Notes under the pieces: model-generated
What the model was told of the DNA's origin: nothing
The model's input: only the letters and a program-made list of their open reading frames with translations
The model's database searches: none
Position numbers and translations under genes: made by a program
Source of the DNA: Bacilli bacterium
Lineage (GTDB): Bacteria; Bacillota_I; Bacilli_A; RF39; UBA660
NCBI GenBank assembly: GCA_051872635.1
Contig: JBJEEA010000042.1
Location: 24,822 to 88,821 of the forward strand
Direction of reading: 5' to 3'
DNA length: 64,000 bases
Shown: in pieces, positions 29,879-60,788 of the stretch
Layout of the letters: the number at the start of each line of letters is the position of its first letter
Position numbering within the stretch: position 1 is the first letter of the stretch

Positions 29879-30526
29879 CTAATTAACCCCTTCTAATTCA
29901 GCAATATAAATAGTTTGATGATATTCATCATCCTTAGTACAAGTTATTAATGTAAGAATAGTTTTTTCACTGTCTCTGATTATTTTAATCATTCCTGTTT
30001 TTTCTTCATTATAAATATTAACTATTTTATAGGTATATTTTGAATTATTGTAATAAATATTTATTTTATCACCTTGCACTAGTTTATATAAGTCTTTAAA
30101 ATAACTATTATTATAATTACCAGAATGTCCCGCAATTATAAGATTACCTTTGTTTACATTAGGGTAATTTGATTCTGGTAATACATATAAATTGAATTTT
30201 ACATTATTTAAATTAGAACTCTTACTATAAAAGCCTTTATATAAATTTATCTTTGGAATTTCAATAATTCCCAAATATTCTTCATATGTGTAGTTATTAT
30301 TACTTTTTTCTTCTTTTTCATGATTTTCTAAGTTTTCTGCTGGTATAACACTATCATCTTGCTCTTTTTCATTAATGCCTTGATTTAATTGAGATAGTGT
30401 CAAATTCATTTCACTAAATACAACATCCCTTTTATCTTTAATATAATTAGAAAGTAAAGCGAGAGTTCCAATTATTATTAGTGTTACTCCCGCTGCTACT
30501 TGGTATTTAAAATTAATTTTCTTCAT
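29879..30526 (-). CDS. sortase-family transpeptidase
   Basis: N-terminal TM anchor, LGIIEIPKINL, active-site His (IIAGHSG) and Cys (TLITC). It overlaps the upstream surface protein gene by 14 nt. Confidence 0.8.
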   Translation of the reverse strand: MKKINFKYQVAAGVTLIIIGTLALLSNYIKDKRDVVFSEMNLTLSQLNQGINEKEQDDSVIPAENLENHEKEEKSNNNYTYEEYLGIIEIPKINLYKGFYSKSSNLNNVKFNLYVLPESNYPNVNKGNLIIAGHSGNYNNSYFKDLYKLVQGDKINIYYNNSKYTYKIVNIYNEEKTGMIKIIRDSEKTILTLITCTKDDEYHQTIYIAELEGVN

Positions 30527-32084
30527 TCTTTTTATAATTTTTGTATATTATCATAGCACCAAGGCCGATAATAATAATTCCAATTAAGGATGCTGTAATT
30601 GTCTTAAATGATGATGTACTAGGAACAGATATATATGTTTCTGGTTTATTATACATTACTATTTCACCATCTACTGTTCCATCTTCTTTAACCGTAAACT
30701 CAACTGTTTCTGTACTTAATTCATATCCTTCTGGTGCGAGAGTTTCAGTTAAATAATATTTTCCTGGTTCTAGGTTTTCAATTTTATGTGGTTCTTCAGA
30801 AGATATCCATGCTTCAATTAAGTTTCCATCTTTATCTTTAAGTTCAAGATGAGCCCCTGGAAGTTCATTTCCGCTCGTAATATCTTTTTTACTTATATAT
30901 ATTGATTTCTCTGATACTTCTTCAGGGTTATTTTTCATAACAACTTTAGTAACACTTCCATCAGACTTTAGCTCAAATTCTATCTTTTCTGAACTTAAAA
31001 TATAACCTTCTGGTGCGATAGTTTCAGTTAAATAATATTTTCCTGGATTTAATCCTTTAATAACTTTAGGTTCACTAGTAGAAATCCACGAATACTCATA
31101 GCTTCCATCGGCTGATTCAAGTGTTAATTTTGCTCCTGGTAATTCGCTTCCTGTTGTAGCATCAATCTTGCTAATTTGAACTTCAGTACTTACATTAATT
31201 TTTAAAGTAGTTGAATCTTTTAAACTTTTATTTTCTGGATATAAGGCTGCTGTTGATTGATAATATGAATGAGCTGGAGTATACAAATAAGCTTTATTTA
31301 TACTTCCTGTTCCTGATATATTAATTTTAAACTCTGCATTAAGTGTAGTAATACTTGATACAGGAACTTTTACTATAAACTGCTCATCAGTAGTAAAAGT
31401 TGATTTTTCTTTACCATTACTATCAGTAATAATTGTATTCTTTGGTGCATTTTCTAAATTTACAGTATAACTGTTATTTTTTATTTTTCCAGTAGTGGTT
31501 ACGCCAATATTAGAGCTTACGTAATACTTTCCATCACTAGACAATGTTAAATTATTATTTGAAATACTAACTTTCATATCTGGATTTGGATTTGAATAAT
31601 TTTTTGCCCCTTTTACTAATTTTGCTATTTCTCTTACAACATCAGAGCTTTCTCCTCTATATGTACCATTAGTAAGATTAAAATAAGTAAACGTAGTATC
31701 ATTTGGAGCAACTAAGTACCAAACTGCCAAACCGGTGATAAAGTAATCTTTATTTTTATTACCAGTTATGCTTTTTTGTGGATAACCATTTTCTAAAACA
31801 TAAGCAAATCTATCATCTAGCTCTTTACTTAAAGTATATTTTTCGGTTCCATTAGCGATCATTGAATCGTGTATTTCAGTACAATAAACAACTTTTCCAT
31901 CCGTATTTTCTTTATAAGAAAATCTAAGCGTACTATTTTTTAAATAGTTTGAACCTTCAATTAAATATAAATCTTTAGCATTGATATAGAAACTATTAGG
32001 TGCTGTCGTTGATGCTTTTACGGTAATACCAAAAATAGTACTAAAAACTGCTATTAAAATAAATAAAATTTTTTTTAATTTCAT
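30513..32084 (-). CDS. cell-surface protein with a TQXA-like N-terminal domain, two SpaA/Cna-B-type repeats and a C-terminal sorting signal
   Basis: Start chosen at MKLKKILFIL (GGGAGGG SD upstream); the track ORF extends to 32144. It contains VVYCTE ... YVLENGYP ... ITGLAVW, two GKYYLTET.APEGY repeats, and a C-terminal VPSTS motif followed by a TM helix and a KNYKK tail. Confidence 0.8.
   Translation of the reverse strand: MKLKKILFILIAVFSTIFGITVKASTTAPNSFYINAKDLYLIEGSNYLKNSTLRFSYKENTDGKVVYCTEIHDSMIANGTEKYTLSKELDDRFAYVLENGYPQKSITGNKNKDYFITGLAVWYLVAPNDTTFTYFNLTNGTYRGESSDVVREIAKLVKGAKNYSNPNPDMKVSISNNNLTLSSDGKYYVSSNIGVTTTGKIKNNSYTVNLENAPKNTIITDSNGKEKSTFTTDEQFIVKVPVSSITTLNAEFKINISGTGSINKAYLYTPAHSYYQSTAALYPENKSLKDSTTLKINVSTEVQISKIDATTGSELPGAKLTLESADGSYEYSWISTSEPKVIKGLNPGKYYLTETIAPEGYILSSEKIEFELKSDGSVTKVVMKNNPEEVSEKSIYISKKDITSGNELPGAHLELKDKDGNLIEAWISSEEPHKIENLEPGKYYLTETLAPEGYELSTETVEFTVKEDGTVDGEIVMYNKPETYISVPSTSSFKTITASLIGIIIIGLGAMIIYKNYKKNEEN
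30639..31181 (-). repeat. tandem in-frame duplication encoding two SpaA/Cna-B-like domains of about 87 aa each
   Basis: Residues 322-408 and 415-502 align well (SK.D..(T/S)G.ELPGA.L.L...DG...W.S..EP..I..L.PGKYYLTET.APEGY). Confidence 0.8.
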
Positions 32085-32198
32085 AATAAAACCCTCCCTT
32101 GAAATTCGGTTATATATATTAACACTTTTTTTTATGTTTGTCAAGGTAACAATTTGCCACTTATTATAAGTAGAAAGTAGAAGAACTTTTATTTCCTT

Positions 32199-41835: not shown

Positions 41836-41896
41836 TAGTTTTATATACTCTAAGAGAACTTTTCAATAATTTTATTTTATAAATTTTTTATGCAAT

Positions 41897-41933
41897 AAAA
41901 AAACACAGTAATTAAAGTCATTACTATGTTTTT
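41897..41933. terminator. bidirectional terminator between convergent sodA and paralogue 3
   Basis: CACAGTAAT ... ATTACTATG stem with one mismatch, flanked by an A-run and a T-run. Confidence 0.5.
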
Positions 41934-41952: not shown

Positions 41953-42627
41953 CTATGCTGAGAATGTAGCAGATACTTGACCGCCAGCAGCGTTCATAGT
42001 AACAGTGCCACTGTATGTACCAGTTTCACTAGTATCTCCAGCTTCGTTCTGAGAAGATTCAGTATTAGTTAAATATACTAGTAAGTAATATGTAACTGGA
42101 GTATTAGCTGTTAATGATGCATTTTTATGCATATCATCAGGTGTAGCTAAATCTAAATTACCTGTGCTTACAATGTTAGTTGCTGAAGTTTCTGTTCCTG
42201 TGTAAATAGCATAATGCCAGTTAGTTTTAACTTTTGCATCTACTGTTAAAGTTTCAAGTCTAACGCTTGCATTAGCAACGGTTTGAGTAGATTTTGCCTC
42301 TATTTTGTATAGATGGCAACCAGTATAACCATTAGAAGCACAGTTTGCTTTTACAGCATTATTAACAGTATCAAGTGTACCATCAATATTAGCTGGTACT
42401 AAATCTATGCTAGCAACTCCGTCTTCTGGTGTTTTGTTAACTCTTGTTACAGTTACACTAAGTGCAGTTGCAAGATCATTATTTGTACCACCAGTAACAG
42501 TATCACCAGTAGCAGTAGCAGCAGCACTAAAGTATGCAAATGTTGCACCAATAATAGCTACTACCAATGTAGCAACACCTATTACAGCGTAAAATACGCC
42601 AGGTCCCTTTCTCTTTTCATCATCCAT
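41953..42627 (-). CDS. secreted protein paralogue 3 with a SipW-cognate (TasA/CalY-type) signal-peptide motif
   Basis: MDDEKRKGPGVFYAVIGVATLVVAIIGATFAYFSAAATATGD. Start chosen after the AAAGGAGG SD; the track uses a TTG at 42636. Paralogous to the next two genes. Confidence 0.65.
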   Translation of the reverse strand: MDDEKRKGPGVFYAVIGVATLVVAIIGATFAYFSAAATATGDTVTGGTNNDLATALSVTVTRVNKTPEDGVASIDLVPANIDGTLDTVNNAVKANCASNGYTGCHLYKIEAKSTQTVANASVRLETLTVDAKVKTNWHYAIYTGTETSATNIVSTGNLDLATPDDMHKNASLTANTPVTYYLLVYLTNTESSQNEAGDTSETGTYSGTVTMNAAGGQVSATFSA

Positions 42628-42728
42628 TATTTTCAATCCTCCTTTACAATAATAATTGTAACAAATATTGTATTAAAATGCAATACTTTTTTTATCTTTA
42701 TGGAAAAAATTTAATGATAAATTTTTAC

Positions 42729-42757
42729 AAAAAAAATGAAGAGAGCACGGAGCTCTC
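42729..42757 (-). terminator. rho-independent terminator after paralogue 2
   Basis: On the minus strand, GAGAGC-TCCGT-GCTCTC is followed by TTCATTTTTTTT. Confidence 0.65.
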
Positions 42758-42775
42758 AATTAATTAATATTTATT

Positions 42776-43501
42776 TTAGGCACTTGCTGAAAATGAAGCA
42801 ACTACTTTTCCCCCTAATACATCCATACTAATTGTGCCATTATATGTTCCAGTACCACTATTTAAATTTGTGGTATCTTCTGGATTTTGAACTTGATCTT
42901 TGTTAGCTAAATAAATTAATAAGTAATAATAAACTGGATTATTAGCAGTTAGTGATGAATTATTATGAATGTCAAAGCCGGTTTTGCCTTCACCGGTATA
43001 TGTTGTAGCAAAAGTAGCAAAATCTCCTAGGCCACCATCTACTATTGATGTGGCATTATAAGAAGTACCATCATTAGTATAAATAGCATATTTCCAACTA
43101 GCTGTATCAGTAGCATCAGTAGATAATGTTGTAAGTCTGACACTGGCATTACTAATATCTTGAGTTGATTTAGCAGTTATTTTGTATAGATGACATCCAG
43201 TATATCCATTAGCAACACATTTTTGGTCAATTGCTGTATTGATACCATCTACAGTGGCTGTCATATCGGTAGGGACTAAATTATCACTGTTTGCTCCAGT
43301 TTCATCGAATATAACTTTTTCAACATTTAATGAAAGCGCGCTTGATAAGTTATTCTCTGTCTGCCCACTAATTTCATCTCCATTAGCAGTAGCGGATGCA
43401 CTAAAATATGCAAATGTTGCACCAATTATAGCCACTATTAATGTAGCAACGCCTATTATTGCATACAAAGTATTAGGTTTATTTCTGTTTTCTTCTTTCA
43501 T
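42776..43501 (-). CDS. secreted protein paralogue 2 with a SipW-cognate-type signal-peptide motif
   Basis: MKEENRNKPNTLYAIIGVATLIVAIIGATFAYFSASATANGD. AAAGGAGG SD upstream; the track ORF extends to 43534. Confidence 0.65.
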   Translation of the reverse strand: MKEENRNKPNTLYAIIGVATLIVAIIGATFAYFSASATANGDEISGQTENNLSSALSLNVEKVIFDETGANSDNLVPTDMTATVDGINTAIDQKCVANGYTGCHLYKITAKSTQDISNASVRLTTLSTDATDTASWKYAIYTNDGTSYNATSIVDGGLGDFATFATTYTGEGKTGFDIHNNSSLTANNPVYYYLLIYLANKDQVQNPEDTTNLNSGTGTYNGTISMDVLGGKVVASFSASA

Positions 43502-43569
43502 TATTTTAAATCCTCCTTTATTTGATTTTAACAAAAATTATTGATAATTACAATATGATGCTTATATAA

Positions 43570-44187
43570 TTATGCATTAAAAGTTGCCGTAACTTGTGAA
43601 CCAGTGGATGCTGAAACAGTTATTACTCCACTAAAAGAAGCTTTATCAGTGGTATTTTGGGATTCTTGAGTTTCATTTATATAAATCATTATATAAAATT
43701 TTGAAGTTTGACCTGCCACTAAAATGATATTAGATGATACATCAGTATCCGTACTATCATGTACCGATAAAACAGTAGTAGCATTACTCATGGAAGCCCA
43801 TTTTAGATTAGTTACTGTTTCTTTATTTAAAGCTATACTTATGTTAATATTAGTATCATCACTACCTGTATTAGCAGTAGTTATTTCATAAATTTGACAT
43901 ACAGTATTTCCATTGGAATCAATACAGTTCGAAGAAGCTGCTTGAGGTAATTGACTAGTGGTTCCACTTTTAGAACCATCAAGTATTGGTACTAATGATC
44001 CTGTAGATGGGCTAATCATCTTTACTGATAATTCCAAGTTTATATCTAATGCTTCACCATTAATTCCATCAGTGGAAGCTTCAGCACTAAAATAGGCATA
44101 AGTAGATCCAACTATTGAAATAATGAAAATGAAAACACCAATTATAGCGTAAATAAGTCCAGGACTTTTTTTCCTATTTTCTTCCAC
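43570..44187 (-). CDS. secreted protein paralogue 1 with a SipW-cognate-type signal-peptide motif
   Basis: GTG start after an AAAGGAG SD. MEENRKKSPGLIYAIIGVFIFIISIVGSTYAYFSAEASTDG. Shares the C-x6-7-C loop and the C-terminal ...VSA(T/S)F(S/N)A end with paralogues 2 and 3. Confidence 0.65.
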   Translation of the reverse strand: MEENRKKSPGLIYAIIGVFIFIISIVGSTYAYFSAEASTDGINGEALDINLELSVKMISPSTGSLVPILDGSKSGTTSQLPQAASSNCIDSNGNTVCQIYEITTANTGSDDTNINISIALNKETVTNLKWASMSNATTVLSVHDSTDTDVSSNIILVAGQTSKFYIMIYINETQESQNTTDKASFSGVITVSASTGSQVTATFNA

Positions 44188-44225: not shown

Positions 44226-45056
44226 TTATTTTTCTACATAATCTTTGCCATTAATATTAATATTAGTATCTTCACTAATATCTGGTAAATTTAAATCATT
44301 AAATAGTACATTATCTTTTGAAGATGTTAAAGTACTATTTTCTATTGGTATACTATTCTTAATATTAATAAGATTTCTGTTATCAGAAAACAATTTTTCT
44401 CGATCTACTTTTTTAGGGTCATAACTATCAATAATCCAAAATTCATACAATAGTTTTAAAATTCCGTCAGTCATAACAGAATTTTCAATAATTGCTAATT
44501 TTTTTTCTTCAACTTTAATATTATTTTCTACTATAAAAATTTCGTCTAAAATACTAGCTTGTTTTTCTATTAAAATATCTTGACTAATAATAGTACTATA
44601 TGTTCTAGGATACTTAACCTTATCTAATTTTTCTTTTAATATATTTCTTTTCTTAACAAGTTCTTGATAATTGCTCTCTTTTTCAAATAATAAATATAGA
44701 ATGTCTTTAATACTATTATCTTGATATTTTATATCTTCATATAAAATATTTTTATATTTATTGTTTGTATCTTCATTAAATTTAGATAATAAAGTATCTT
44801 CAAGCAAAATATTATCAAGTGAATATTCTTCCTTCTGAATAAGTAAATTTTCTAATTTAGATTTATCTTCTTGAATATTTTTAAATGTATTAAGATATTC
44901 TTTCTTAGCAGTTAAATATTTTAAAATATTATTATATCTTTCTCTATAAGGTATTAATTCTTCATCCTTATCATTTTCCTTTAAATATGTAATAATTTTT
45001 TCAACTCGATCTTTTTCTTCCTCAATTGTCGTAGTTATATAATCATACTTATCCAT
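44226..45056 (-). CDS. coiled-coil protein of unknown function, last non-secreted gene of the F1-like ATPase operon
   Basis: Preferred start MDKYDYITT (ATG within ...GAAAATGGATAA, an 8 nt overlap with the gamma-like stop, GGAGGAAG SD upstream). The track ORF extends to 45095. Lys/Glu-rich and heptad-like. Confidence 0.55.
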   Translation of the reverse strand: MDKYDYITTTIEEEKDRVEKIITYLKENDKDEELIPYRERYNNILKYLTAKKEYLNTFKNIQEDKSKLENLLIQKEEYSLDNILLEDTLLSKFNEDTNNKYKNILYEDIKYQDNSIKDILYLLFEKESNYQELVKKRNILKEKLDKVKYPRTYSTIISQDILIEKQASILDEIFIVENNIKVEEKKLAIIENSVMTDGILKLLYEFWIIDSYDPKKVDREKLFSDNRNLINIKNSIPIENSTLTSSKDNVLFNDLNLPDISEDTNININGKDYVEK

Positions 45057-45843
45057 TTTCTTCCTCCAATGGTACTGTTTTTTTAAAGTTTTCAACTGTT
45101 TTTAATATTAACTTATCTTTTTTTTCTTTTCTTTGTTTATTGGACTCTTCTTCTTCAAGTTCTTCTATTTTATCTAAAGCCTCACTTGTTATTTGGTTTC
45201 TAAGAACATTTTCTGCTGCTCTTGAAATACACTCACACATTCTAAGTTCATATAAAATATAAAATGACAAAAGACTATGGAGCATACTTGTTATATCGGT
45301 TTCAATTACAAAATCGTTCTTTTCATCATAATCACCATCAAATTCGATTGGAAAAAGAGTAAGTTTTCTAAATTCAAAAGATGTACTGGAATTATAGTGA
45401 TTATAATATAAATTTATTTCGCTATAAGTAGAATTTCTTATAGCATCATCAATTGTTCTTTCAATTTTAGAAAATTCTTTATAAAAGTCGTCTTTATTTA
45501 TTTTTAAAATTACTCTACTGTCATTATAAGTAATCTTTTTGCCAATAATAATTTTATAGTCATTTATGTCTTCTTTTATTTGCTTTGCTACTTGAGAATT
45601 AAAATTGCCACAAAAACCGTAATCATTTGCTATATAAATATTAAGCTTTGCCATATTAGGATCTGGCATAATTACTTTTTTGTCTAAAATGAGATTTTTA
45701 TTATAGACTATTGTCTTAATAATTTTAGTTATTTCATTACCAACGTTTCGGTAAGTTTCCGCCTGCCTTTTTGATGCGTCTACTCTAAGAAGGGAATGGA
45801 AATTCATTACTTTAACAACATTTTTAATGCGCATTTTGACCAT
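45049..45843 (-). CDS. F1 ATPase gamma-subunit-like protein
   Basis: The N-terminal helix (IKNVVKVMNFHSLLRVDASKRQAETY), IANDYGFCGNFNSQV (compare canonical SDRGLCGGFN) and the C-terminal helix (SRAAENVLRNQITSEALDKIEEL) follow the gamma layout. Confidence 0.7.
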   Translation of the reverse strand: MVKMRIKNVVKVMNFHSLLRVDASKRQAETYRNVGNEITKIIKTIVYNKNLILDKKVIMPDPNMAKLNIYIANDYGFCGNFNSQVAKQIKEDINDYKIIIGKKITYNDSRVILKINKDDFYKEFSKIERTIDDAIRNSTYSEINLYYNHYNSSTSFEFRKLTLFPIEFDGDYDEKNDFVIETDITSMLHSLLSFYILYELRMCECISRAAENVLRNQITSEALDKIEELEEEESNKQRKEKKDKLILKTVENFKKTVPLEEENG

Positions 45844-46331
45844 CCTTTCTTATATATTTATTAGAAGTAACAACGGCTTTTAGATTCTTAAGAAGTGTAT
45901 AGGATAAATATAGAAAAACAAATATCATAACAAAAACAAGGAGTAGAAGCATCCACATTGACATATATTCATTTTTTATATAATCATGAATTAAATAGGT
46001 AATTTTAAGTCCTCCTAATGATATTAGTGATAATATTAGATTTAATATTATGTATTTGTTTTTTATTAGAATGTCGCTTATTAGGGTCAATAGAATAACA
46101 ATAATTATTATGTACACGTCTATATTAATAAAGGATACCATTAGATAAATTAAAAAAATGTAATTTATTATTGATGAAGAAATACTTATTATTTCTCTAT
46201 TCGTCATTCCCTGCATAAGGCCATATAATCTAACTTTTGAATTTTTTGGATCAAAGCTCTTAATTAATATCTTTAAGATAATATATAGGGATATAATAAC
46301 AATTAATGCAACAAAGGCAAAACTAAATATA

Positions 46332-46339
<8 letters not shown>
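45824..46339 (-). CDS. small polytopic membrane protein (171 aa, about 5 TM) embedded in the ATPase operon
   Basis: Intact ORF overlapping both neighbours by 8 and 20 nt. Contains KVRLYGLMQGM. Confidence 0.55.
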
Positions 46340-49253
<2,914 letters not shown>

Positions 49254-49270
<17 letters not shown>

Positions 49271-50012
49271 TTAGACTAAAATCATAAACTTTATTTCGAT
49301 ATAAAATTTTAATTCCTTTGTAAATTTTTTCATCAACAACAGTTTTTACTTTATTATCAATATAATTGTAATTTATATTTTTACTTGGAACAAGTATAGT
49401 TATGGTAGGATTATTAAGTTCAATAAGTCTATTTAAATAATCAATAAAATCTTCCATATTAAACTTATTACTAGATAAAAATATTTCATATACCTTGTAT
49501 TCTTTTTCACTTAAAAATTTTTTTAAATATTTAGTTTTCTCTTCTGGCAGTAATGTTTCTATTCTATAAATTTCCTCAGGAGTAAATTTTTTTCTTAAAT
49601 TAAGGCAAAAATCATAATTATTATTATCTTTTACATTTTTTAAAAAATCTTTTATTAGTCCTTCGTAATCAATAATAAATCTTTCTTCTATCTTTTTATT
49701 TATATCAAAAATATTTTTATCGAGATAATTAGTTTCAGTAAGTAAATCTATTATACTGCTATCAAAGTCATAATTAGACTTTGTTTCTGATAATTCATTT
49801 TCTTTTAATCCACTTTTCCTTTTTTCTAATTCTTGATCTAGATCTTTTAATTTTTTTTCTTTTTCATCAATTAAATAATCATACTCTTGTAGTTTATCAA
49901 CAAAATACGACTTGGATTTATCATCAATTGTCTTAACGGTATTTTTTAATATTAAGCTCATTGCCAAAACAAGAAGTATTATAACTATTAATGACAAGAC
50001 AAATAATGGCAT
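49254..50012 (-). CDS. single-pass membrane protein with a coiled coil, a candidate b-like peripheral-stalk subunit with an extra C-terminal domain
   Basis: N-terminal TM helix (MPLFVLSLIVIILLVLAMSLIL), then a charged helical region (EKEKKLKDLDQELEKRKSG). It sits between the c-like and alpha-like genes, where atpF and atpH normally lie. Confidence 0.5.
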
Positions 50013-50014
50013 AA

Positions 50015-50272
<258 letters not shown>

Positions 50273-51007
50273 TTAAATTTTTCCTATTTCTTTATTTATC
50301 GTCGGTGTTATCTTTTCTTCAGCAATATGATAGCAAATATCATTTATTTCAAATAAATTAACTGAATAGTATATTGTGTTGTTATCAATATATATATTTA
50401 TAATATCAGGTAGTTTTTCTCTGATTCTGATAATGTATTTTTCTCTGTCATTATTGAATTCGCTACCAGTAAGTTCCTTATCGCTTACTGCGTCTACTAT
50501 AATTCTTTCAGTGTCAGTTAATTTTATATAATCATCAAAAATTTCTGTAGCTATGTCTTTATAGCTAGTACCTGCGATTTGAAGAAGCTCATCATTATTA
50601 ACTATTCTATTTTCCTTTAAATTAAAATTTAAAGTTAATATTTTGTCATGATTAGGAATAATGTAATTTATTTTTACTGATAAGATATTACCATATATTC
50701 CATAAGTAATATTGGTATCGATAATTTCATGTTTTAAAATTTCATTTTGTTTATTTAAAAAATCATCACTTATTTTTGTATCAATATTATTTAAAAAGAC
50801 TCTGTTACCATTAATGTCTATATAGTAACTAATCTTATTATTTACCAAAGTTAGTTCTTTGGAAAGATTTCCATATTTATGATGGTATGCATATATCCAA
50901 TAGGCAATCATTGATATAGCGATGCAGAATATCATTATAAAGAGCAAAATAATTTTTTTATTATTATTTTTATAAATATTTACTTTATTCTTTTTCTTCA
51001 CAGTCAC
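50273..51007 (-). CDS. N-terminally anchored protein of unknown function, first gene of the F1-like ATPase operon
   Basis: GTG start. A basic N-terminus is followed by one TM helix (IILLFIMIFCIAISMIAYWIYAY) and an extracytoplasmic domain of about 195 aa. Confidence 0.5.
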   Translation of the reverse strand: MTVKKKNKVNIYKNNNKKIILLFIMIFCIAISMIAYWIYAYHHKYGNLSKELTLVNNKISYYIDINGNRVFLNNIDTKISDDFLNKQNEILKHEIIDTNITYGIYGNILSVKINYIIPNHDKILTLNFNLKENRIVNNDELLQIAGTSYKDIATEIFDDYIKLTDTERIIVDAVSDKELTGSEFNNDREKYIIRIREKLPDIINIYIDNNTIYYSVNLFEINDICYHIAEEKITPTINKEIGKI

Positions 51008-51024: not shown

Positions 51025-51053
51025 AGTATATCATTTTAATATTTATAAGTCAA
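51025..51053 (-). promoter_or_regulatory. strong SigA-type promoter with an extended -10, driving the F1-like ATPase operon
   Basis: On the minus strand, TTGACT (51048-51053), a 17 nt spacer ending TGA, then TATACT (51025-51030). It lies 18 nt upstream of the first gene's start. Confidence 0.6.
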
Positions 51054-54918: not shown

Positions 54919-55638
54919 TTAATTTAGATTAAAATAGTATTCATCTCCAGTTACAGTATATCCACCAGTATTATTTGTGCTTACATTAGAAGGAACATTT
55001 ATATTAAGTATTGTTCCAGAAGTTGAATCTGTTTCACAATATACATAGCCGCTTACTGTAGAATTGGCAGGTATTGTATCTGGTAATTTTTCATTTGTCA
55101 ATTTTTCATCTTGCAGTGTTGATCCGTAATTGCAAGAAGCAATTTCTGTTTTGGAAGAATCCATCAAGTTAATAGGAATTAACAAATTACCTATTTCTTC
55201 CTCACTATTGCTGTTGTTTTTAATCGTTACCTTAACTTTGGTATATGTTCCATCCAAATCGAAAACGGATAATACTGTTCCATCAGTAGTATAAACTACT
55301 CCTCTTTGAACATCTCCAACAGAAATAGTTAGATTATATAATTTGTTTTTTACAGTAATTTCTTTGCCTAATTCAACTGCTGTGCCATCAGATGATGAAC
55401 CACCAAATATTTTAATAGCAAGAAGTATTATTACTATTACAGCTACTACTACTAATACTATTTTTAATATATTTTTATTTTTTTGGGGGCCCTGTTGTTG
55501 TAAATTTTGCGTTTGATTATTTTGATTTAAATGATCCTGATGACCATTATAATTTTGTTGGTCATTTATTACATTATTATTAGCATTCTGATATTGTTGA
55601 TTATTTTGTTGATTATTAAAATTTATATCATTATTCAT
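54919..55638 (-). CDS. single-pass membrane protein with an N/Q-rich cytoplasmic N-terminus and an extracellular beta-rich (DUF4352-like) domain
   Basis: MNNDINFNNQQNNQQYQNANNN..., TM helix ILKIVLVVVAVIVIILLAIKIF, then a domain with the pattern ...YTKVKVTIKNNSNSEEEI.... The family call is tentative. Confidence 0.55.
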   Translation of the reverse strand: MNNDINFNNQQNNQQYQNANNNVINDQQNYNGHQDHLNQNNQTQNLQQQGPQKNKNILKIVLVVVAVIVIILLAIKIFGGSSSDGTAVELGKEITVKNKLYNLTISVGDVQRGVVYTTDGTVLSVFDLDGTYTKVKVTIKNNSNSEEEIGNLLIPINLMDSSKTEIASCNYGSTLQDEKLTNEKLPDTIPANSTVSGYVYCETDSTSGTILNINVPSNVSTNNTGGYTVTGDEYYFNLN

Positions 55639-56949: not shown

Positions 56950-58405
56950 TTAATATAAATTTGAAGTGCAACACTTCACTATTGAAAAAGACACGTGAAT
57001 AATCTATAATATCTTTTCGCAGAAAAAAGAAAGGAAGATTCACATGTCTGATACAAATAATACTACAAAATTAAAGAAAAAGCAATACCATCATCTCACA
57101 AAAGAACAAAGAGTACAAATAGAAATTCTATTAAATCAAAAAGATAAAAATGGTAAAAGATTATTTAGTAATAGTTATATTGCAAATGCCATTGGTGTTA
57201 ACAAATCAACTATCTCTAGAGAACTAAGAAACAGAATTAAATCAAAAATAAATGTAATGAGTGGAAAAATAAAAAACAAGCCTTATAATGCTGTAGATGC
57301 ACAAGACGATTATAATTATAAAAGAGGTTTATCTAAAGCACAATATAAACTTGAAAAATATCCTCAAATGGCAAAATTTATTGAAGATAAAATTAAAATT
57401 GATAAATGGGCTCCTGATGCTATAGTTGGTTACATGAAAGTTCATAATATGTTTGAACGAGATGGTTTTTGTGAAATAACAACACCTACAATTTACAATG
57501 CAATTAGGTATGGAATAATAGATGTTAAGTTATCTGATACAAGAAGAATGAAATATGATCCTAAATATGAATATAAGCGAGAATATCAGGTTTCAGAATC
57601 AAAACTTGATTATAGTATTGAGAAAAGGCCTGAAGAAGTAGATAAACGTTTAGTTTTTGGCCATTTTGAACTTGATACAGTAGTTGGAAAAAGAGATGGT
57701 ATTCATGAATGCTTAATGACTTTAACAGAAAGAAAAACGAGATTTGAAATGGTATTTAAATTACAAGCTAAAACGGCTAAAGAAGTAGTTAATAAATTTA
57801 ACGAAATCAAGATATTCATGAAGAAAAATTTTAATAAAGTATTTAAATCAATAACAACAGATAATGGTTCAGAGTTTTCAGATTTCTTAGAAATAATTAA
57901 AGATACAAAAGCAAAAATTTATTTTTGCCATCCATATTGTTCTGGAGAAAAAGGAACTAATGAAAAAAGTAATAGTATGATTAGATATTTTATTCCAAAA
58001 GGAAAATTAATAGAAAATTATAGTTATGCAGATATTAATGACATTGTAAAATGGATGAATAATTATCCTAGAAAAATTCTGAATTACAAAACTCCTCTAG
58101 AAGCATTACTAGAAGAGTTTGATGATAAAAATGTAATAAATAAAATTTATAAATTGCAAGAAAAGGTAAATTGTTTATAGATATATTTATTCCAATTTGC
58201 CTCTTGACTAAATGATTTTATTTGAATTAATTGTAGTCGTTTAACTGATTGACTTTTCAAAAAAAAATGAAAAATCAATCATTAAACTCCTTCTTAGGTA
58301 ACAAATAAAATCATCATTAATCAAGAGTTTTCTCGGCATAAAAATATCTATAGAACAATATTATAGTTATTCTAAAAAGTTGCACTTGACTTTTTAATTA
58401 TTAAC
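56950..58405 (+). mobile_element. IS30-family insertion sequence, about 1456 bp
   Basis: Imperfect terminal inverted repeats GTTAATATAAATTTGAAGTGCAAC (56950-56973) and GTTGCACTTGACTTTTTAATTATTAAC (58379-58405), which share a GTTAATA terminus and an AAGTGCAAC core. They enclose a single IS30-type transposase gene and are flanked by direct repeats. Confidence 0.75.
57044..58180 (+). CDS. IS30-family DDE transposase
   Basis: N-terminal HTH (LTKEQRVQIEILL...ANAIGVNKSTISRELRNR) and a catalytic core with ELDTV..., TDNGSEF and GTNEKSN (the DDE residues). Confidence 0.9.
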   Translation: MSDTNNTTKLKKKQYHHLTKEQRVQIEILLNQKDKNGKRLFSNSYIANAIGVNKSTISRELRNRIKSKINVMSGKIKNKPYNAVDAQDDYNYKRGLSKAQYKLEKYPQMAKFIEDKIKIDKWAPDAIVGYMKVHNMFERDGFCEITTPTIYNAIRYGIIDVKLSDTRRMKYDPKYEYKREYQVSESKLDYSIEKRPEEVDKRLVFGHFELDTVVGKRDGIHECLMTLTERKTRFEMVFKLQAKTAKEVVNKFNEIKIFMKKNFNKVFKSITTDNGSEFSDFLEIIKDTKAKIYFCHPYCSGEKGTNEKSNSMIRYFIPKGKLIENYSYADINDIVKWMNNYPRKILNYKTPLEALLEEFDDKNVINKIYKLQEKVNCL

Positions 58406-58995: not shown

Positions 58996-59877
58996 TCACA
59001 CTAATTCATATTCTCTTGCTATTATTCTCTTATCACTACAATATTCGATTACATATTTATTATCTTTCTTACAAATAATTATTCCAATAGTTTTATCTTG
59101 AGTAATTTTCTTTAAATTATTATCTATATAATTCATATAAACTTCTATTTGACCAATATGCTCTTTCTTTAATTCTGTCACTTTAAGTTCTACAACTACA
59201 TAGCAATTAAACTCTATATTATAAAGAAGTAAGTCTATATAGTTATATGTATCTCCTAATTTAATCTTATATTCGCTACCAATAAAGCAAAATGAATTAC
59301 CTAATTCTTTCATAAAAGATTCTATATCTTCTAATATTAACTTTTCAAGTATCTTTTCAGATATTTCTTCACAGTTATATGTATTTTTAATAAGAATAGG
59401 ATTTTTAACAAAATCAATAACATTTACTTCTTCTTTATTAATTAATTTATCCCTAGTTATATTATCAAGTCTTTCATATTCCTTACTTTTAATCAAATCA
59501 ATTAGTTCTCTTTTACTTAATTTTCTTTCTATTACTTGACTTATGTAATAATCTATTTCATTGTCATCACTCAGTGCGAATAAAATCCTATAATGTGATA
59601 TTGTTAATTGTGCATCCAGTGGATGCACTTTTGAAAATAAATATAATTTTCTCATTTCAAATAAATATCTAACACTATATTTTTGATTTAGTTCTTCCTT
59701 TAGCCTTTTAGAATATTCTTTTATAATTCCTTCTCCATAATGCTTACCTGCTTCATTAAGCATTTTTCCGACATTGTAATAAGTATTTAAATCGCTTCTG
59801 TTTTTACTGTAATCTTTTACTCTTTTAGTAATTTCATTATTTATTAATTCTTGTTTTATATCTTCATAGTAATTCAT
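58996..59877 (-). CDS. DUF1016 / YhcG-like PD-(D/E)XK nuclease domain protein
   Basis: The N-terminus MNYYEDIKQELINNEITKRVKDYSKNRSDLNTYYNVGKML and the C-terminal IDLLLYN...YVVVELKVTELKKEHIGQ (a D...ELK nuclease core) are typical of the family. TGA stop. Confidence 0.75.
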   Translation of the reverse strand: MNYYEDIKQELINNEITKRVKDYSKNRSDLNTYYNVGKMLNEAGKHYGEGIIKEYSKRLKEELNQKYSVRYLFEMRKLYLFSKVHPLDAQLTISHYRILFALSDDNEIDYYISQVIERKLSKRELIDLIKSKEYERLDNITRDKLINKEEVNVIDFVKNPILIKNTYNCEEISEKILEKLILEDIESFMKELGNSFCFIGSEYKIKLGDTYNYIDLLLYNIEFNCYVVVELKVTELKKEHIGQIEVYMNYIDNNLKKITQDKTIGIIICKKDNKYVIEYCSDKRIIAREYELV

Positions 59878-59897: not shown

Positions 59898-60788
59898 CTA
59901 ACTTAGCGCATAAGTAGTTCGATATATTCTTTTATCACTACAATATTCGATTACATATTTATTATCTTTCTTACAAATAATTATTCCAATAGTTTTATCT
60001 TGAGTAATTTTCTTTAAATTATTATCTATATAATTCATATAAACTTCTATTTGACCAATATGCTCTTTCTTTAATTCTGTCACTTTAAGTTCTACAACTA
60101 CATAGCAATTAAACTCTATATTATAAAGAAGTAAGTCTATATAGTTATATGTATCTCCTAATTTAATCTTATATTCGCTATCAATAAAGCAAAATGAATT
60201 ACCTAATTCTTTTATAAATTAAGATATATCTTCCAATATTAACTTTTTAAGTACCTTTTCAGATATTTCTTCATAATTATATGCATTCTTAATAAGAATT
60301 GGATTTTTGACAAAATCAATAACATTTGATTCTTCTTGATTAATTAATTTTGTTTTGGCATTCTCATCGAGTCTTTCATATTCTCTATTTTTTATTTTTT
60401 CTCTTAATTGTCTAACTGACAAATTTTGTTTTTCAATAATCTTAATATAATAGTTAATCACATTGTCATCATTTAACTTTAACAATTCATCATAATGGCT
60501 CCAAGATAATTTTGCCGACACTGTCGGCACTTTTTGATTATTTACATAATTAAAATATTTAACCATTTTATATAATGTTCTTGCACTATATTTTATATTT
60601 AATTCAACTGTTAATCTTTTAGAATATTCTTTAATAATTCCTTCTCCATAATGCTTACCTGCTTCGCAAAGTATTTTTCCGACATTGTAATAAGTATTTA
60701 AATCGCTTCTGTTTTTACTATAATCTTTTACTCTTTTAGTAATTTCATTATTTAAAAGTTCGTTCTTTATTTCATTATAATAATTCAT
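59898..60788 (-). pseudogene. second tandem DUF1016/YhcG-like gene interrupted by one in-frame TAA
   Basis: The 891 nt span stays in one frame. Codon 60219-60221 is TAA (EDIS*FIKELGNSF) where the intact paralogue reads EDIESFMKELGNSF. The track splits it into 60219-60788 and 59898-60083. Confidence 0.7.
59925..60210. repeat. block of about 286 bp nearly identical to 59023-59308, covering the 3' parts of the tandem DUF1016 genes
   Basis: By-eye alignment shows only 2 mismatches over the block. The 5' two-thirds of the genes are visibly more divergent. Confidence 0.75.

Follow-up and report, generated by a model that had tools for sequence, protein, structure and literature searches.

Three tandem paralogues with putative SipW-cognate leaders, members of a large unannotated family, lie behind an atypical F-type-like ATPase operon in an uncultured Bacilli bacterium

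The closest described counterparts of the genes analyzed here are the TasA/TapA/SipW system of Bacillus subtilis and the CalY-SipW system of Bacillus cereus and, for the operon that precedes these genes, the F1-like X0 ATPases of mycoplasmas. CalY has the leader motif GGTFAYFSD, and BsaA of Clostridium perfringens is a TasA-family protein. One mycoplasma F1-like ATPase drives gliding legs. In another case, the surface system MIB-MIP depends for its function on the Type 3 F1-like X0 ATPase, to which it is genetically linked (PMC12994834). SipW cleaves TasA ahead of residue 28, and the donor strand spans residues 28-38 (PMC9674648). A report on C. perfringens describes BsaA as matrix (extracellular polymeric substance, EPS) components needed for biofilm morphology (PMC7395162). 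The genes in question are three tandem paralogues, termed A, B and C, in a 64,000-nt stretch of contig JBJEEA010000042.1 of an uncultured Bacilli bacterium. This whole stretch is termed the window, and coordinates count from its first letter. The three proteins are best filed as a new variety of SipW substrate, in which a large unannotated family with a fold different from that of TasA is genomically tied to a novel, apparently non-pumping F-type ATPase.

An initial annotation, made from the sequence, had placed three tandem paralogues at 41953-44187. The open reading frames (ORFs) are found there on the minus strand, with their starts corrected. Paralogue A (43570..44187, minus strand; 205 aa) starts with GTG at 44187, 38 nt past the stop codon of the last gene of the ATPase operon. 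Paralogue B (42776..43501, minus strand; 241 aa) starts with ATG at 43501, the mechanical ORF extending to 43534, and paralogue C (41953..42627, minus strand; 224 aa) starts with ATG at 42627. The starts of B and C were reset to these ATG codons, because each of them is located 8-9 nt downstream of AAGGAGG. B and A are 57% and 37% identical to C, respectively, and 51 columns are invariant across the three sequences. All three proteins have a basic N-terminus, a hydrophobic helix of roughly 20 aa and then the motif G(A/S)T(F/Y)AYFSA. Its form is GATFAYFSA in both B and C, while A has GSTYAYFSA. Two cysteine residues are invariant when 103 relatives are aligned. The loop between them, initially described as C-x6-7-C, has seven residues in B and C (C-x7-C) and eight in A (C-x8-C). 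Likewise, the YYLL(V/I)YL block, initially assigned to all three proteins, is present in B and C, while its counterpart in A is FYIMIYI. The C-termini of the three paralogues read VSATFSA, VVASFSASA and VTATFNA and form a common C-terminal strand. The initial description of this common C-terminus and of Thr/Ser/Asn-rich mature parts holds: Thr, Ser and Asn make up 33-37% of the mature parts, as compared with 20% of the window proteome, and Lys and Glu occur at half the usual level. Mature parts that are rich in Thr/Ser/Asn, poor in Lys/Glu and equipped with two invariant cysteine residues would fit an extracellular location. C and B are identical to NCBI entries MGM9882126.1 and MGM9882127.1, respectively, both of which are annotated as 'hypothetical protein' in a 'Bacilli bacterium' MAG, where they lie on a contig of 114,931 bp (locus tags ACI31S_04720/04725).

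Sequence comparison supports the assignment of the N-terminal module of A, B and C to the SipW-cognate class, as initially proposed. The leaders comprise residues 1-31 of A (MEENRKKSPGLIYAIIGVFIFIISIVGSTYA; 44095..44187), B (MKEENRNKPNTLYAIIGVATLIVAIIGATFA; 43409..43501) and C (MDDEKRKGPGVFYAVIGVATLVVAIIGATFA; 42535..42627), all on the minus strand, and the predicted cut lies before YFSA in each of them. In each protein, position −1 is predicted to be residue 31 (Ala), position −3 being Thr, and the predicted semi-tryptic peptide from the mature N-terminus of C is YFSAAATATGDTVTGGTNNDLATALSVTVTR. In a search with TIGR04088, the model that the initial annotation had suggested for the leader, B scores 19.0-19.2 bits and reaches the curated cut-off of 19 bits, while C and A score 14.3 and 13.3 bits, respectively. 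The model is matched by 45 of 48 relatives at E<=1 (best E 6.6e-5), and one relative (P0217) is named 'SipW-dependent-type signal peptide-containing protein' by NCBI. Among 171-181 family ORFs, G-A-T-F-A-Y-F-S/T is almost invariant, and the helix positions V-A-T-L-V-V-A-I-I-G are largely 75-98% conserved. The mean pairwise identity in the family is 58% for the leader and 27% for the mature part.

The assignment of the leader is further supported by the gene context in related loci, 2.2 Mb of which were covered by a loose signal-peptidase motif scan. Of 159 related loci, 14 have SipW-class peptidase homologues next to family arrays. These peptidases carry T-G-S-M. An ORF in locus L012 (L012:63-725) shows TGSMSP...GD, IVHRI and TKGDNN. 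With the model of archaeal-type signal peptidase I, TIGR02228 (cut-off 51.85), it reaches 90.5 bits, and it also matches the SipW model and PF10502. The peptidases occur in two forms. The first form is classic SipW-like, is 225-236 aa long and is encoded at the end of the array in four loci (L024, L051, L074, L148), where the ATPase operon is followed by 2-6 family genes, a small family-like gene and the peptidase gene. The second form is 379-391 aa long, has an N-terminal extension with multiple transmembrane (TM) segments, and is followed by a DUF5305 protein and then by a Gly-rich protein. This cassette is located directly before a B-type gene in L007, L008 and L012, which have the superoxide dismutase, response-regulator and kinase genes found downstream in the window. 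Its position in the window corresponds to the 68-nt spacer between A and B, where the cassette is absent. In L007:5807-6946, L049:13324-14499 and L098:13801-14940, the multi-TM extension is approximately 250 residues long and is fused to an S26B catalytic domain. These extended peptidases are followed by the DUF5305 protein and by a protein of 622-625 aa that contains a glycine-rich domain of ALK/LTK type and whose own leader reads ...SLT(I/V)GY(A/S).... Because sister arrays carry peptidases and the window carries none, these sequences indicate that the lineage possesses a cognate SipW-class enzyme, and that this genome must either encode the enzyme outside the window or have lost it.

The initial annotation had likened the mature parts to TasA and CalY as well. 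This likeness does not extend beyond the N-terminal region. C scores 11.4-11.5 bits (E 0.27) against PF12389 (Peptidase_M73), of which the gathering threshold is 22.5 bits, and only at profile positions 5-66; sub-threshold matches to PF12389 are obtained for 46 of 103 relatives, with the best E being 1.2e-3. When profiles of the family (103 and 148 sequences) are compared by hhalign with a 46-sequence TasA profile, just 47-49 N-terminal columns are aligned, over the leader and the first strand, at a probability of 14-16% and E 0.0015-0.0019. When TasA alone is used (query sequence 100% identical to 8AUR), 26 columns are aligned. Homology to the family is clear for the small proteins that are encoded next to the peptidase (97.5% probability and E 7e-12 by hhalign). 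These proteins align with the TasA profile over 90 columns (E 7e-4, probability 26%), which cover the leader, the donor strand and the next strands and include a motif aligned to N-x-G-S-L of TasA.

AlphaFold models of C and A have predicted local distance difference test (pLDDT) scores of 85.2 and 84.5 and predicted template modelling (pTM) scores of 0.75 and 0.77, respectively. Residues 56-224 of C and 50-205 of A form a beta-sandwich with pLDDT >90. The helix, which is approximately 16-20 residues long, is modelled with low confidence and is followed by an arm of approximately 25 residues with pLDDT of approximately 50. This arm holds nearly invariant residues (I44, G46 and T48 in B numbering). 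The best matches of A and C in a Foldseek search against PDB are accessory sandwiches of GH123 and GH3, macroglobulin domains of complement proteins, and Ig-like domains of integrin and PAD4, with E of approximately 1e-4 and a query-normalized TM-score of at most 0.43. The comparison with TasA and with archaeal bundling pili proposed in the initial annotation gives no match, and the jelly roll of TasA (PDB 5OF1, 8AUR) is not recovered: TasA, AbpA and camelysin chains are not among the best 50 matches of either protein. A search against viral structures gives weak collagen-repeat and tail-fibre-like matches only, which are uninformative, and weak Pfam/NCBIfam matches of A, B and C to Shiga-toxin B, SctI, CbiN and PilX were treated as noise. 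These profiles and models indicate that the mature protein is not a member of the TasA/Peptidase_M73 family, and that it would resemble TasA in processing and possibly in assembly, not in fold.

Thus, the family resembles the TasA and CalY systems in the SipW-cognate leader motif (GATFAYFS in the family, GGGTWAAF in TasA), in the dedicated archaeal-type signal peptidase encoded beside the substrate genes, here in sister genomes, in the presence of several paralogous substrates per locus, and in the conserved stretch straight after the cut, which is the position of the donor strand in TasA. It differs from these systems in that the mature domain has no detectable similarity to TasA in sequence or among the best 50 Foldseek matches, that this window contains no sipW, that family arrays reach 13-14 copies, and that TasA systems have no link to an ATPase operon. 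AbpA/AbpB, which form the archaeal bundling pili of Pyrobaculum, resemble the modelled proteins in being small, beta-rich secreted subunits with an N-terminal arm that is potentially a donor strand. The processing peptidase of AbpA is likewise not encoded nearby (PMC9245690). No similarity between AbpA and the family was found, and polymerization of the family is a proposal.

A sequence of events can be proposed from these data. The proteins would be sorted by the nearly invariant 31-residue module, with its basic start, its Gly/Ala/Val/Ile helix and G-A-T-F-A-Y-F-S/T-A, a motif class that is recognized by archaeal/endoplasmic reticulum-type signal peptidases of the SipW kind. By analogy with TasA (TWA-AF) and CalY (TFA-YF), a SipW-class peptidase would then cut between Ala31 and Tyr32. 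Cleavage after residue 31 is favoured by motif and gene context, because positions −3 and −1 are occupied by small residues (Thr and Ala), in agreement with the rule, and peptidase genes are located in or beside sister arrays. In the models, the mature protein opens with the conserved arm of approximately 25 residues, which is predicted to be flexible (YFSAxATxxGDxIxGxT), and continues with an Ig/macroglobulin-like beta-sandwich that bears one disulphide loop. The weakest step is the last one, in which the N-terminal arm may act as a donor strand as in TasA, so that the subunits might build a surface fibre or coat. The initial annotation had likewise raised polymerization by donor-strand exchange, with the three paralogues as putative major, minor and anchor subunits. 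The donor strand of TasA starts directly past the SipW cut, and such an arrangement would account for a motif that is conserved on both sides of the cut. Within such a structure, A might be a base or adaptor linked to the ATPase operon, and C would probably be the bulk subunit, because it has a probable promoter of its own, putative flanking terminators and codon usage similar to that of ribosomal-protein genes.

As the initial annotation stated, the paralogues sit behind an F1-like ATPase operon rather than in a tapA-sipW-tasA arrangement. This operon (44226..51007, minus strand) is located directly upstream of A and consists of nine genes, which encode, in order, a 244-aa TM protein, a c-like subunit of 81 aa, a b-like subunit of 252 aa, alpha- and beta-like subunits of 448 and 452 aa, an 87-aa protein, a 171-aa membrane protein, a gamma-like subunit of 264 aa and a 289-aa protein of unknown family. 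The alpha-, beta-, gamma- and c-like products match known families, the c-like subunit matching PF00137, and the five other proteins have no family match. All subunits score beneath the NCBIfam cut-offs for genuine F1Fo, alternate N-ATPase, and mycoplasma Type 2 and Type 3 subunits. Scores relative to the F1Fo cut-offs are 410/554 for alpha, 458.6/462.85 for beta, 60/194 for gamma and 41/71 for c. For the MSC_0618/0619 and MMOB1660/1670 models, the alpha-like subunit scores 310 against 520 and 370 against 600, and the beta-like subunit scores 413 against 570 and 364 against 850, respectively. In the c-like subunit, Ala is aligned to the ion-binding Glu of chloroplast and other solved c-rings, and all 20 distinct c-like relatives have Ala, Ser or Thr at this position. 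The 171-aa membrane protein was considered as an a-subunit for its 'KVRLYGLM' Arg motif, and this candidate was dropped, as the Arg is not conserved in its relatives. Because the c-like subunit has no carboxylate and the Arg of the 171-aa protein is not conserved, canonical ion translocation by this ATPase looks impossible from its sequence.

The link between this operon and the family was examined from both sides. Among 79 loci chosen by the family, 34 carry the ATPase operon, always on the same strand. In the reverse test, which is less biased, the gamma-like gene was the sole basis for fetching 80 metagenome loci, of which 44 extend 3 kb or more downstream. The family motif is found within 6 kb downstream on the same strand in 40 of these 44 loci, and tblastn adds two more (42/44); of the remaining two, one has a family gene at 7.8 kb and one has none. 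The linkage spans gamma identities of 62-86% and differing outer flanks. Past the operon, the A type comes first among the family genes in 28 of 35 loci; in four loci, no other family gene follows. A is thus a conserved positional member, and this placement fits a special role of the A type. In one related locus, a closed 1.46-Mb chromosome from a metagenome-assembled genome (MAG) (L027, CP091726.1), tblastn matches to the ATPase subunits and the 289-aa protein are fragmented, the latter into five pieces, which suggests frameshifts or another reading of TGA. The operon resembles the mycoplasma F1-like X0 ATPases (Type 3 of MIB-MIP and Type 2 of Mycoplasma mobile gliding) in having F1-like alpha/beta/gamma/epsilon subunits with a non-canonical membrane sector, in its tight genomic link to genes for surface proteins, and in a host lineage related to Mollicutes. 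It differs from them in containing c-like and b-like genes, in the absence of the 12-TM protein of the mycoplasma seven-gene layout, in gene order, in alpha and beta scores below the MSC_0618/0619 and MMOB1660/1670 cut-offs, and in partner proteins that are unrelated to MIB, MIP and Gli proteins.

The family itself is large. A search with B gives 924 relatives, none of which bears a Pfam domain, and a search with A gives 104. An exhaustive profile search gives 1,874 representatives at 50% identity with E<=1e-3, of which 891 have E<=1e-10. All members with a source name are called 'hypothetical', save the one named for its leader alone. The relatives originate from MAGs of the gut that bear the labels Bacilli, Tenericutes, Clostridium sp. 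CAG:302, CAG:914 and Firmicutes CAG:321. A, B and C are best explained as pre-proteins of a large, hitherto unannotated family in uncultured low-G+C gut Bacilli, the members of which would be small, extracellular and folded as beta-sandwiches. Contigs of eight loci (L012, L044, L047, L059, L062, L063, L075 and L078), several of which also carry the ATPase operon, are filed as Paludibacteraceae, Muribaculaceae or Methanobacteriaceae MAGs, and this filing probably represents binning errors. The first 79 related loci contain 232 family ORFs in 78 loci, usually in same-strand tandem arrays of 1-6 genes. Arrays are also found after PolC and after ABC transporters, and one array (L017:6649-17024) consists of 13-14 tandem same-strand copies beside a response-regulator/kinase pair; this array could be a hotspot of expansion or variation. 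Some members are 300-750 aa long and have only the N-terminal region in common with the family. In one sub-lineage (L029:3032-8638, L023 and L028), the array lies upstream of the ATPase operon, with a surface protein of approximately 1,850 aa between them, and an FtsX/MacB-type ABC transporter precedes the array.

Transcription signals separate C from its neighbours. Downstream of B (42741..42757, minus strand), a program scan finds the terminator-like hairpin GAGAGCTCCGTGCTCTC with a T-run behind it. The terminator that was initially placed at 42729-42757 is thus recovered before C as a terminator-like hairpin with a narrower position. A promoter-like site for C, TTGCAT with a 17-nt spacer and TGtTACAAT (42655..42683, minus strand), was read by eye and is absent from the site-scan list; with this candidate, C probably has its own promoter, as had been suggested. 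An AT-rich hairpin, ACATAGTAAT-GACTTTA-ATTACTGTGT, followed by a T-run, is located after C (41895..41929, minus strand); it was also read by eye and is not reported by the scan, which requires three G-C pairs. A promoter-like site precedes the ATPase operon (51025-51053). The scan finds no terminator in the 38-nt junction between this operon and A. Because this gap is short and without a terminator, A is predicted to be cotranscribed with the ATPase operon, and B probably is as well. The codon usage of C is within the range of ribosomal-protein genes (codon adaptation index (CAI) 0.747, rank 16 of 73), although CAI discriminates poorly at 27% G+C.

These results make it reasonably probable that A, B and C are SipW-processed extracellular subunits of a new fold family, for which assembly by strand exchange is proposed. 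Several observations weigh against this interpretation. The window contains no signal peptidase, as initially reported: the SM.P motif is absent from all six frames, tblastn with eight SipW-class sequences from relatives gives no match in the window, and neither S26 nor A24 families are found among the 34 window proteins scanned against Pfam. The initial annotation had suggested that sipW be sought elsewhere in the genome; it is found beside arrays of related loci as described above, but not in approximately 14 kb of DNA of the same organism (approximately 4.4 kb and 10 kb beyond the two window ends), and the closest syntenic relatives, L004 and L005, also have no peptidase within 10 kb. The leaders of C and A remain under the TIGR04088 cut-off. 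The leader helix is conserved well beyond the need of an ordinary signal peptide, which would fit a retained anchor or docking element too. The AlphaFold models are those of monomers, and no fibre-forming homologue is found among the best 50 Foldseek matches. Finally, the 13-14 copies in L017 and the fast divergence fit variable surface antigens and fibre subunits equally well. Several of these points also fit an alternative in which the helix is not cleaved and the proteins are type II membrane-anchored, fast-evolving surface antigens, like the variable surface proteins of Mollicutes, with the conserved motif serving membrane docking or partner binding. The nearly invariant helix beside an ectodomain that diverges down to approximately 27% identity, and the large arrays of variable copy number, would suit this alternative, which is nevertheless unlikely, because sister arrays contain genes for SipW-class peptidases, 7 of the 8 motif positions agree with the cleavage site of CalY type (−3 being Thr and −1 being Ala), and the residues beyond the cut are also conserved, like the stretch that forms the donor strand in TasA. 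It is quite improbable that the proteins are very distant true members of the TasA/CalY family with a jelly-roll core diverged beyond recognition. The sub-threshold PF12389 matches, the hhalign E values over leader and first strand, and the 90-column alignment of the bridging small proteins point in this direction, but the similarity is confined to the N-terminal module, hhalign probabilities are 14-26%, and two confident models match Ig, FnIII and macroglobulin types instead. A type IV pilin-like subunit, cut by a prepilin peptidase after K-G near residue 8 and retaining the helix as the filament core, was rejected as highly improbable. A conserved K-G-x-G does precede the helix, and a search of PDB sequences with the family profile gives a lone match, to the N-terminal helix of 8fk7, an archaeal pilin-like 'flagellin', but its E of 0.42 lacks significance; A24 peptidases, PilB/PilT ATPases and PilC are absent from the window proteins scanned and from the recurrent neighbours, the helix is just approximately 20 residues long and leads into a Gly/Thr-rich linker without packing on the sandwich, and the SipW context speaks against a pilin.

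A further possibility adds to SipW processing rather than excluding it. The proteins may be extracellular working parts or clients of the upstream ATPase, an apparently non-pumping motor. Movement powered by ATP would be relayed through the membrane, so that surface proteins are exported, mounted, moved or reset, comparable to what mycoplasma F1-like ATPases do for the gliding legs and MIB-MIP. This proposal is tentative and has a limited chance of being correct. It agrees with the presence of the family downstream of nearly all gamma-chosen loci despite varied flanks, with the A type as the usual first gene and the 38-nt distance of A from the operon, with the lack of an ion-binding Glu/Asp in the c-like subunit of every locus and of a conserved Arg in the 171-aa protein, with subunit scores beneath all of the NCBIfam cut-offs named above, and with the precedent of the Type 3 ATPase that MIB-MIP requires (PMC12994834). 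However, the link is not exclusive, as arrays also occur after PolC, after ABC transporters and in the 13-14-copy array; the sampled genomes are all of one clade, so that gene order may be inherited; and TasA-type systems work without an ATPase. It is conceivable, at a similarly modest probability, that the ATPase, the A type and variable B and C types, together with SipW in some genomes, form one machine, in which ATP would drive the assembly, movement or turnover of a SipW-processed fibre or coat in wall-bearing gut relatives of Mollicutes. Such a machine would represent a third kind of surface-coupled F1-like motor, besides the motors of mycoplasma gliding and of MIB-MIP, and might be the evolutionary antecedent of both.

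The remainder of the window gives some information on the host. The window has a G+C content of approximately 27%, uses TGA as a stop codon and contains a ribosomal-protein operon. At 29879-32144 (minus strand), a sortase gene overlaps the gene for a 543-aa protein with a thioester domain and two SpaA-type domains; from these domains, the protein looks like a wall-anchored adhesin or pilin, which would imply a peptidoglycan wall. A 239-aa protein encoded at 54919-55638 (minus strand), with a Gln/Asn-rich N-terminus, one TM helix, a beta-rich C-terminal part and no Pfam match, may be another uncharacterized surface protein. An IS30-like transposase gene (HTH_38 and rve) adjoins a full-length DUF1016/YhcG nuclease gene, beside which a 189-aa ORF closely matches the N-terminal two-thirds of the nuclease (57044-58180, plus strand; 58996-59877 and 60219-60788, minus strand), and the same transposase and nuclease families adjoin family arrays in L001-L003. 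Past the low-coordinate end of the window, the DNA of the same organism (L162:9381-12334) carries defence-type genes for AbiEi/AbiEii, DUF7695 and a ThsB-like TIR protein, which come after ligA, ftsA, ftsZ and recG.

The hosts of this family are uncultured, small-genome Bacilli that are common in the guts of humans and animals. If the interpretation given above is correct, SipW-type processing would apply to a second class of surface subunits, one with a different structure, and the TasA paradigm would extend past the TasA fold. The tight link to a seemingly non-translocating F-type ATPase would then provide a concrete case for the coupling of an F1-like motor to surface proteins. The proteins themselves would probably be abundant, variable surface antigens of gut commensals, and as such may be relevant to host-microbe recognition.

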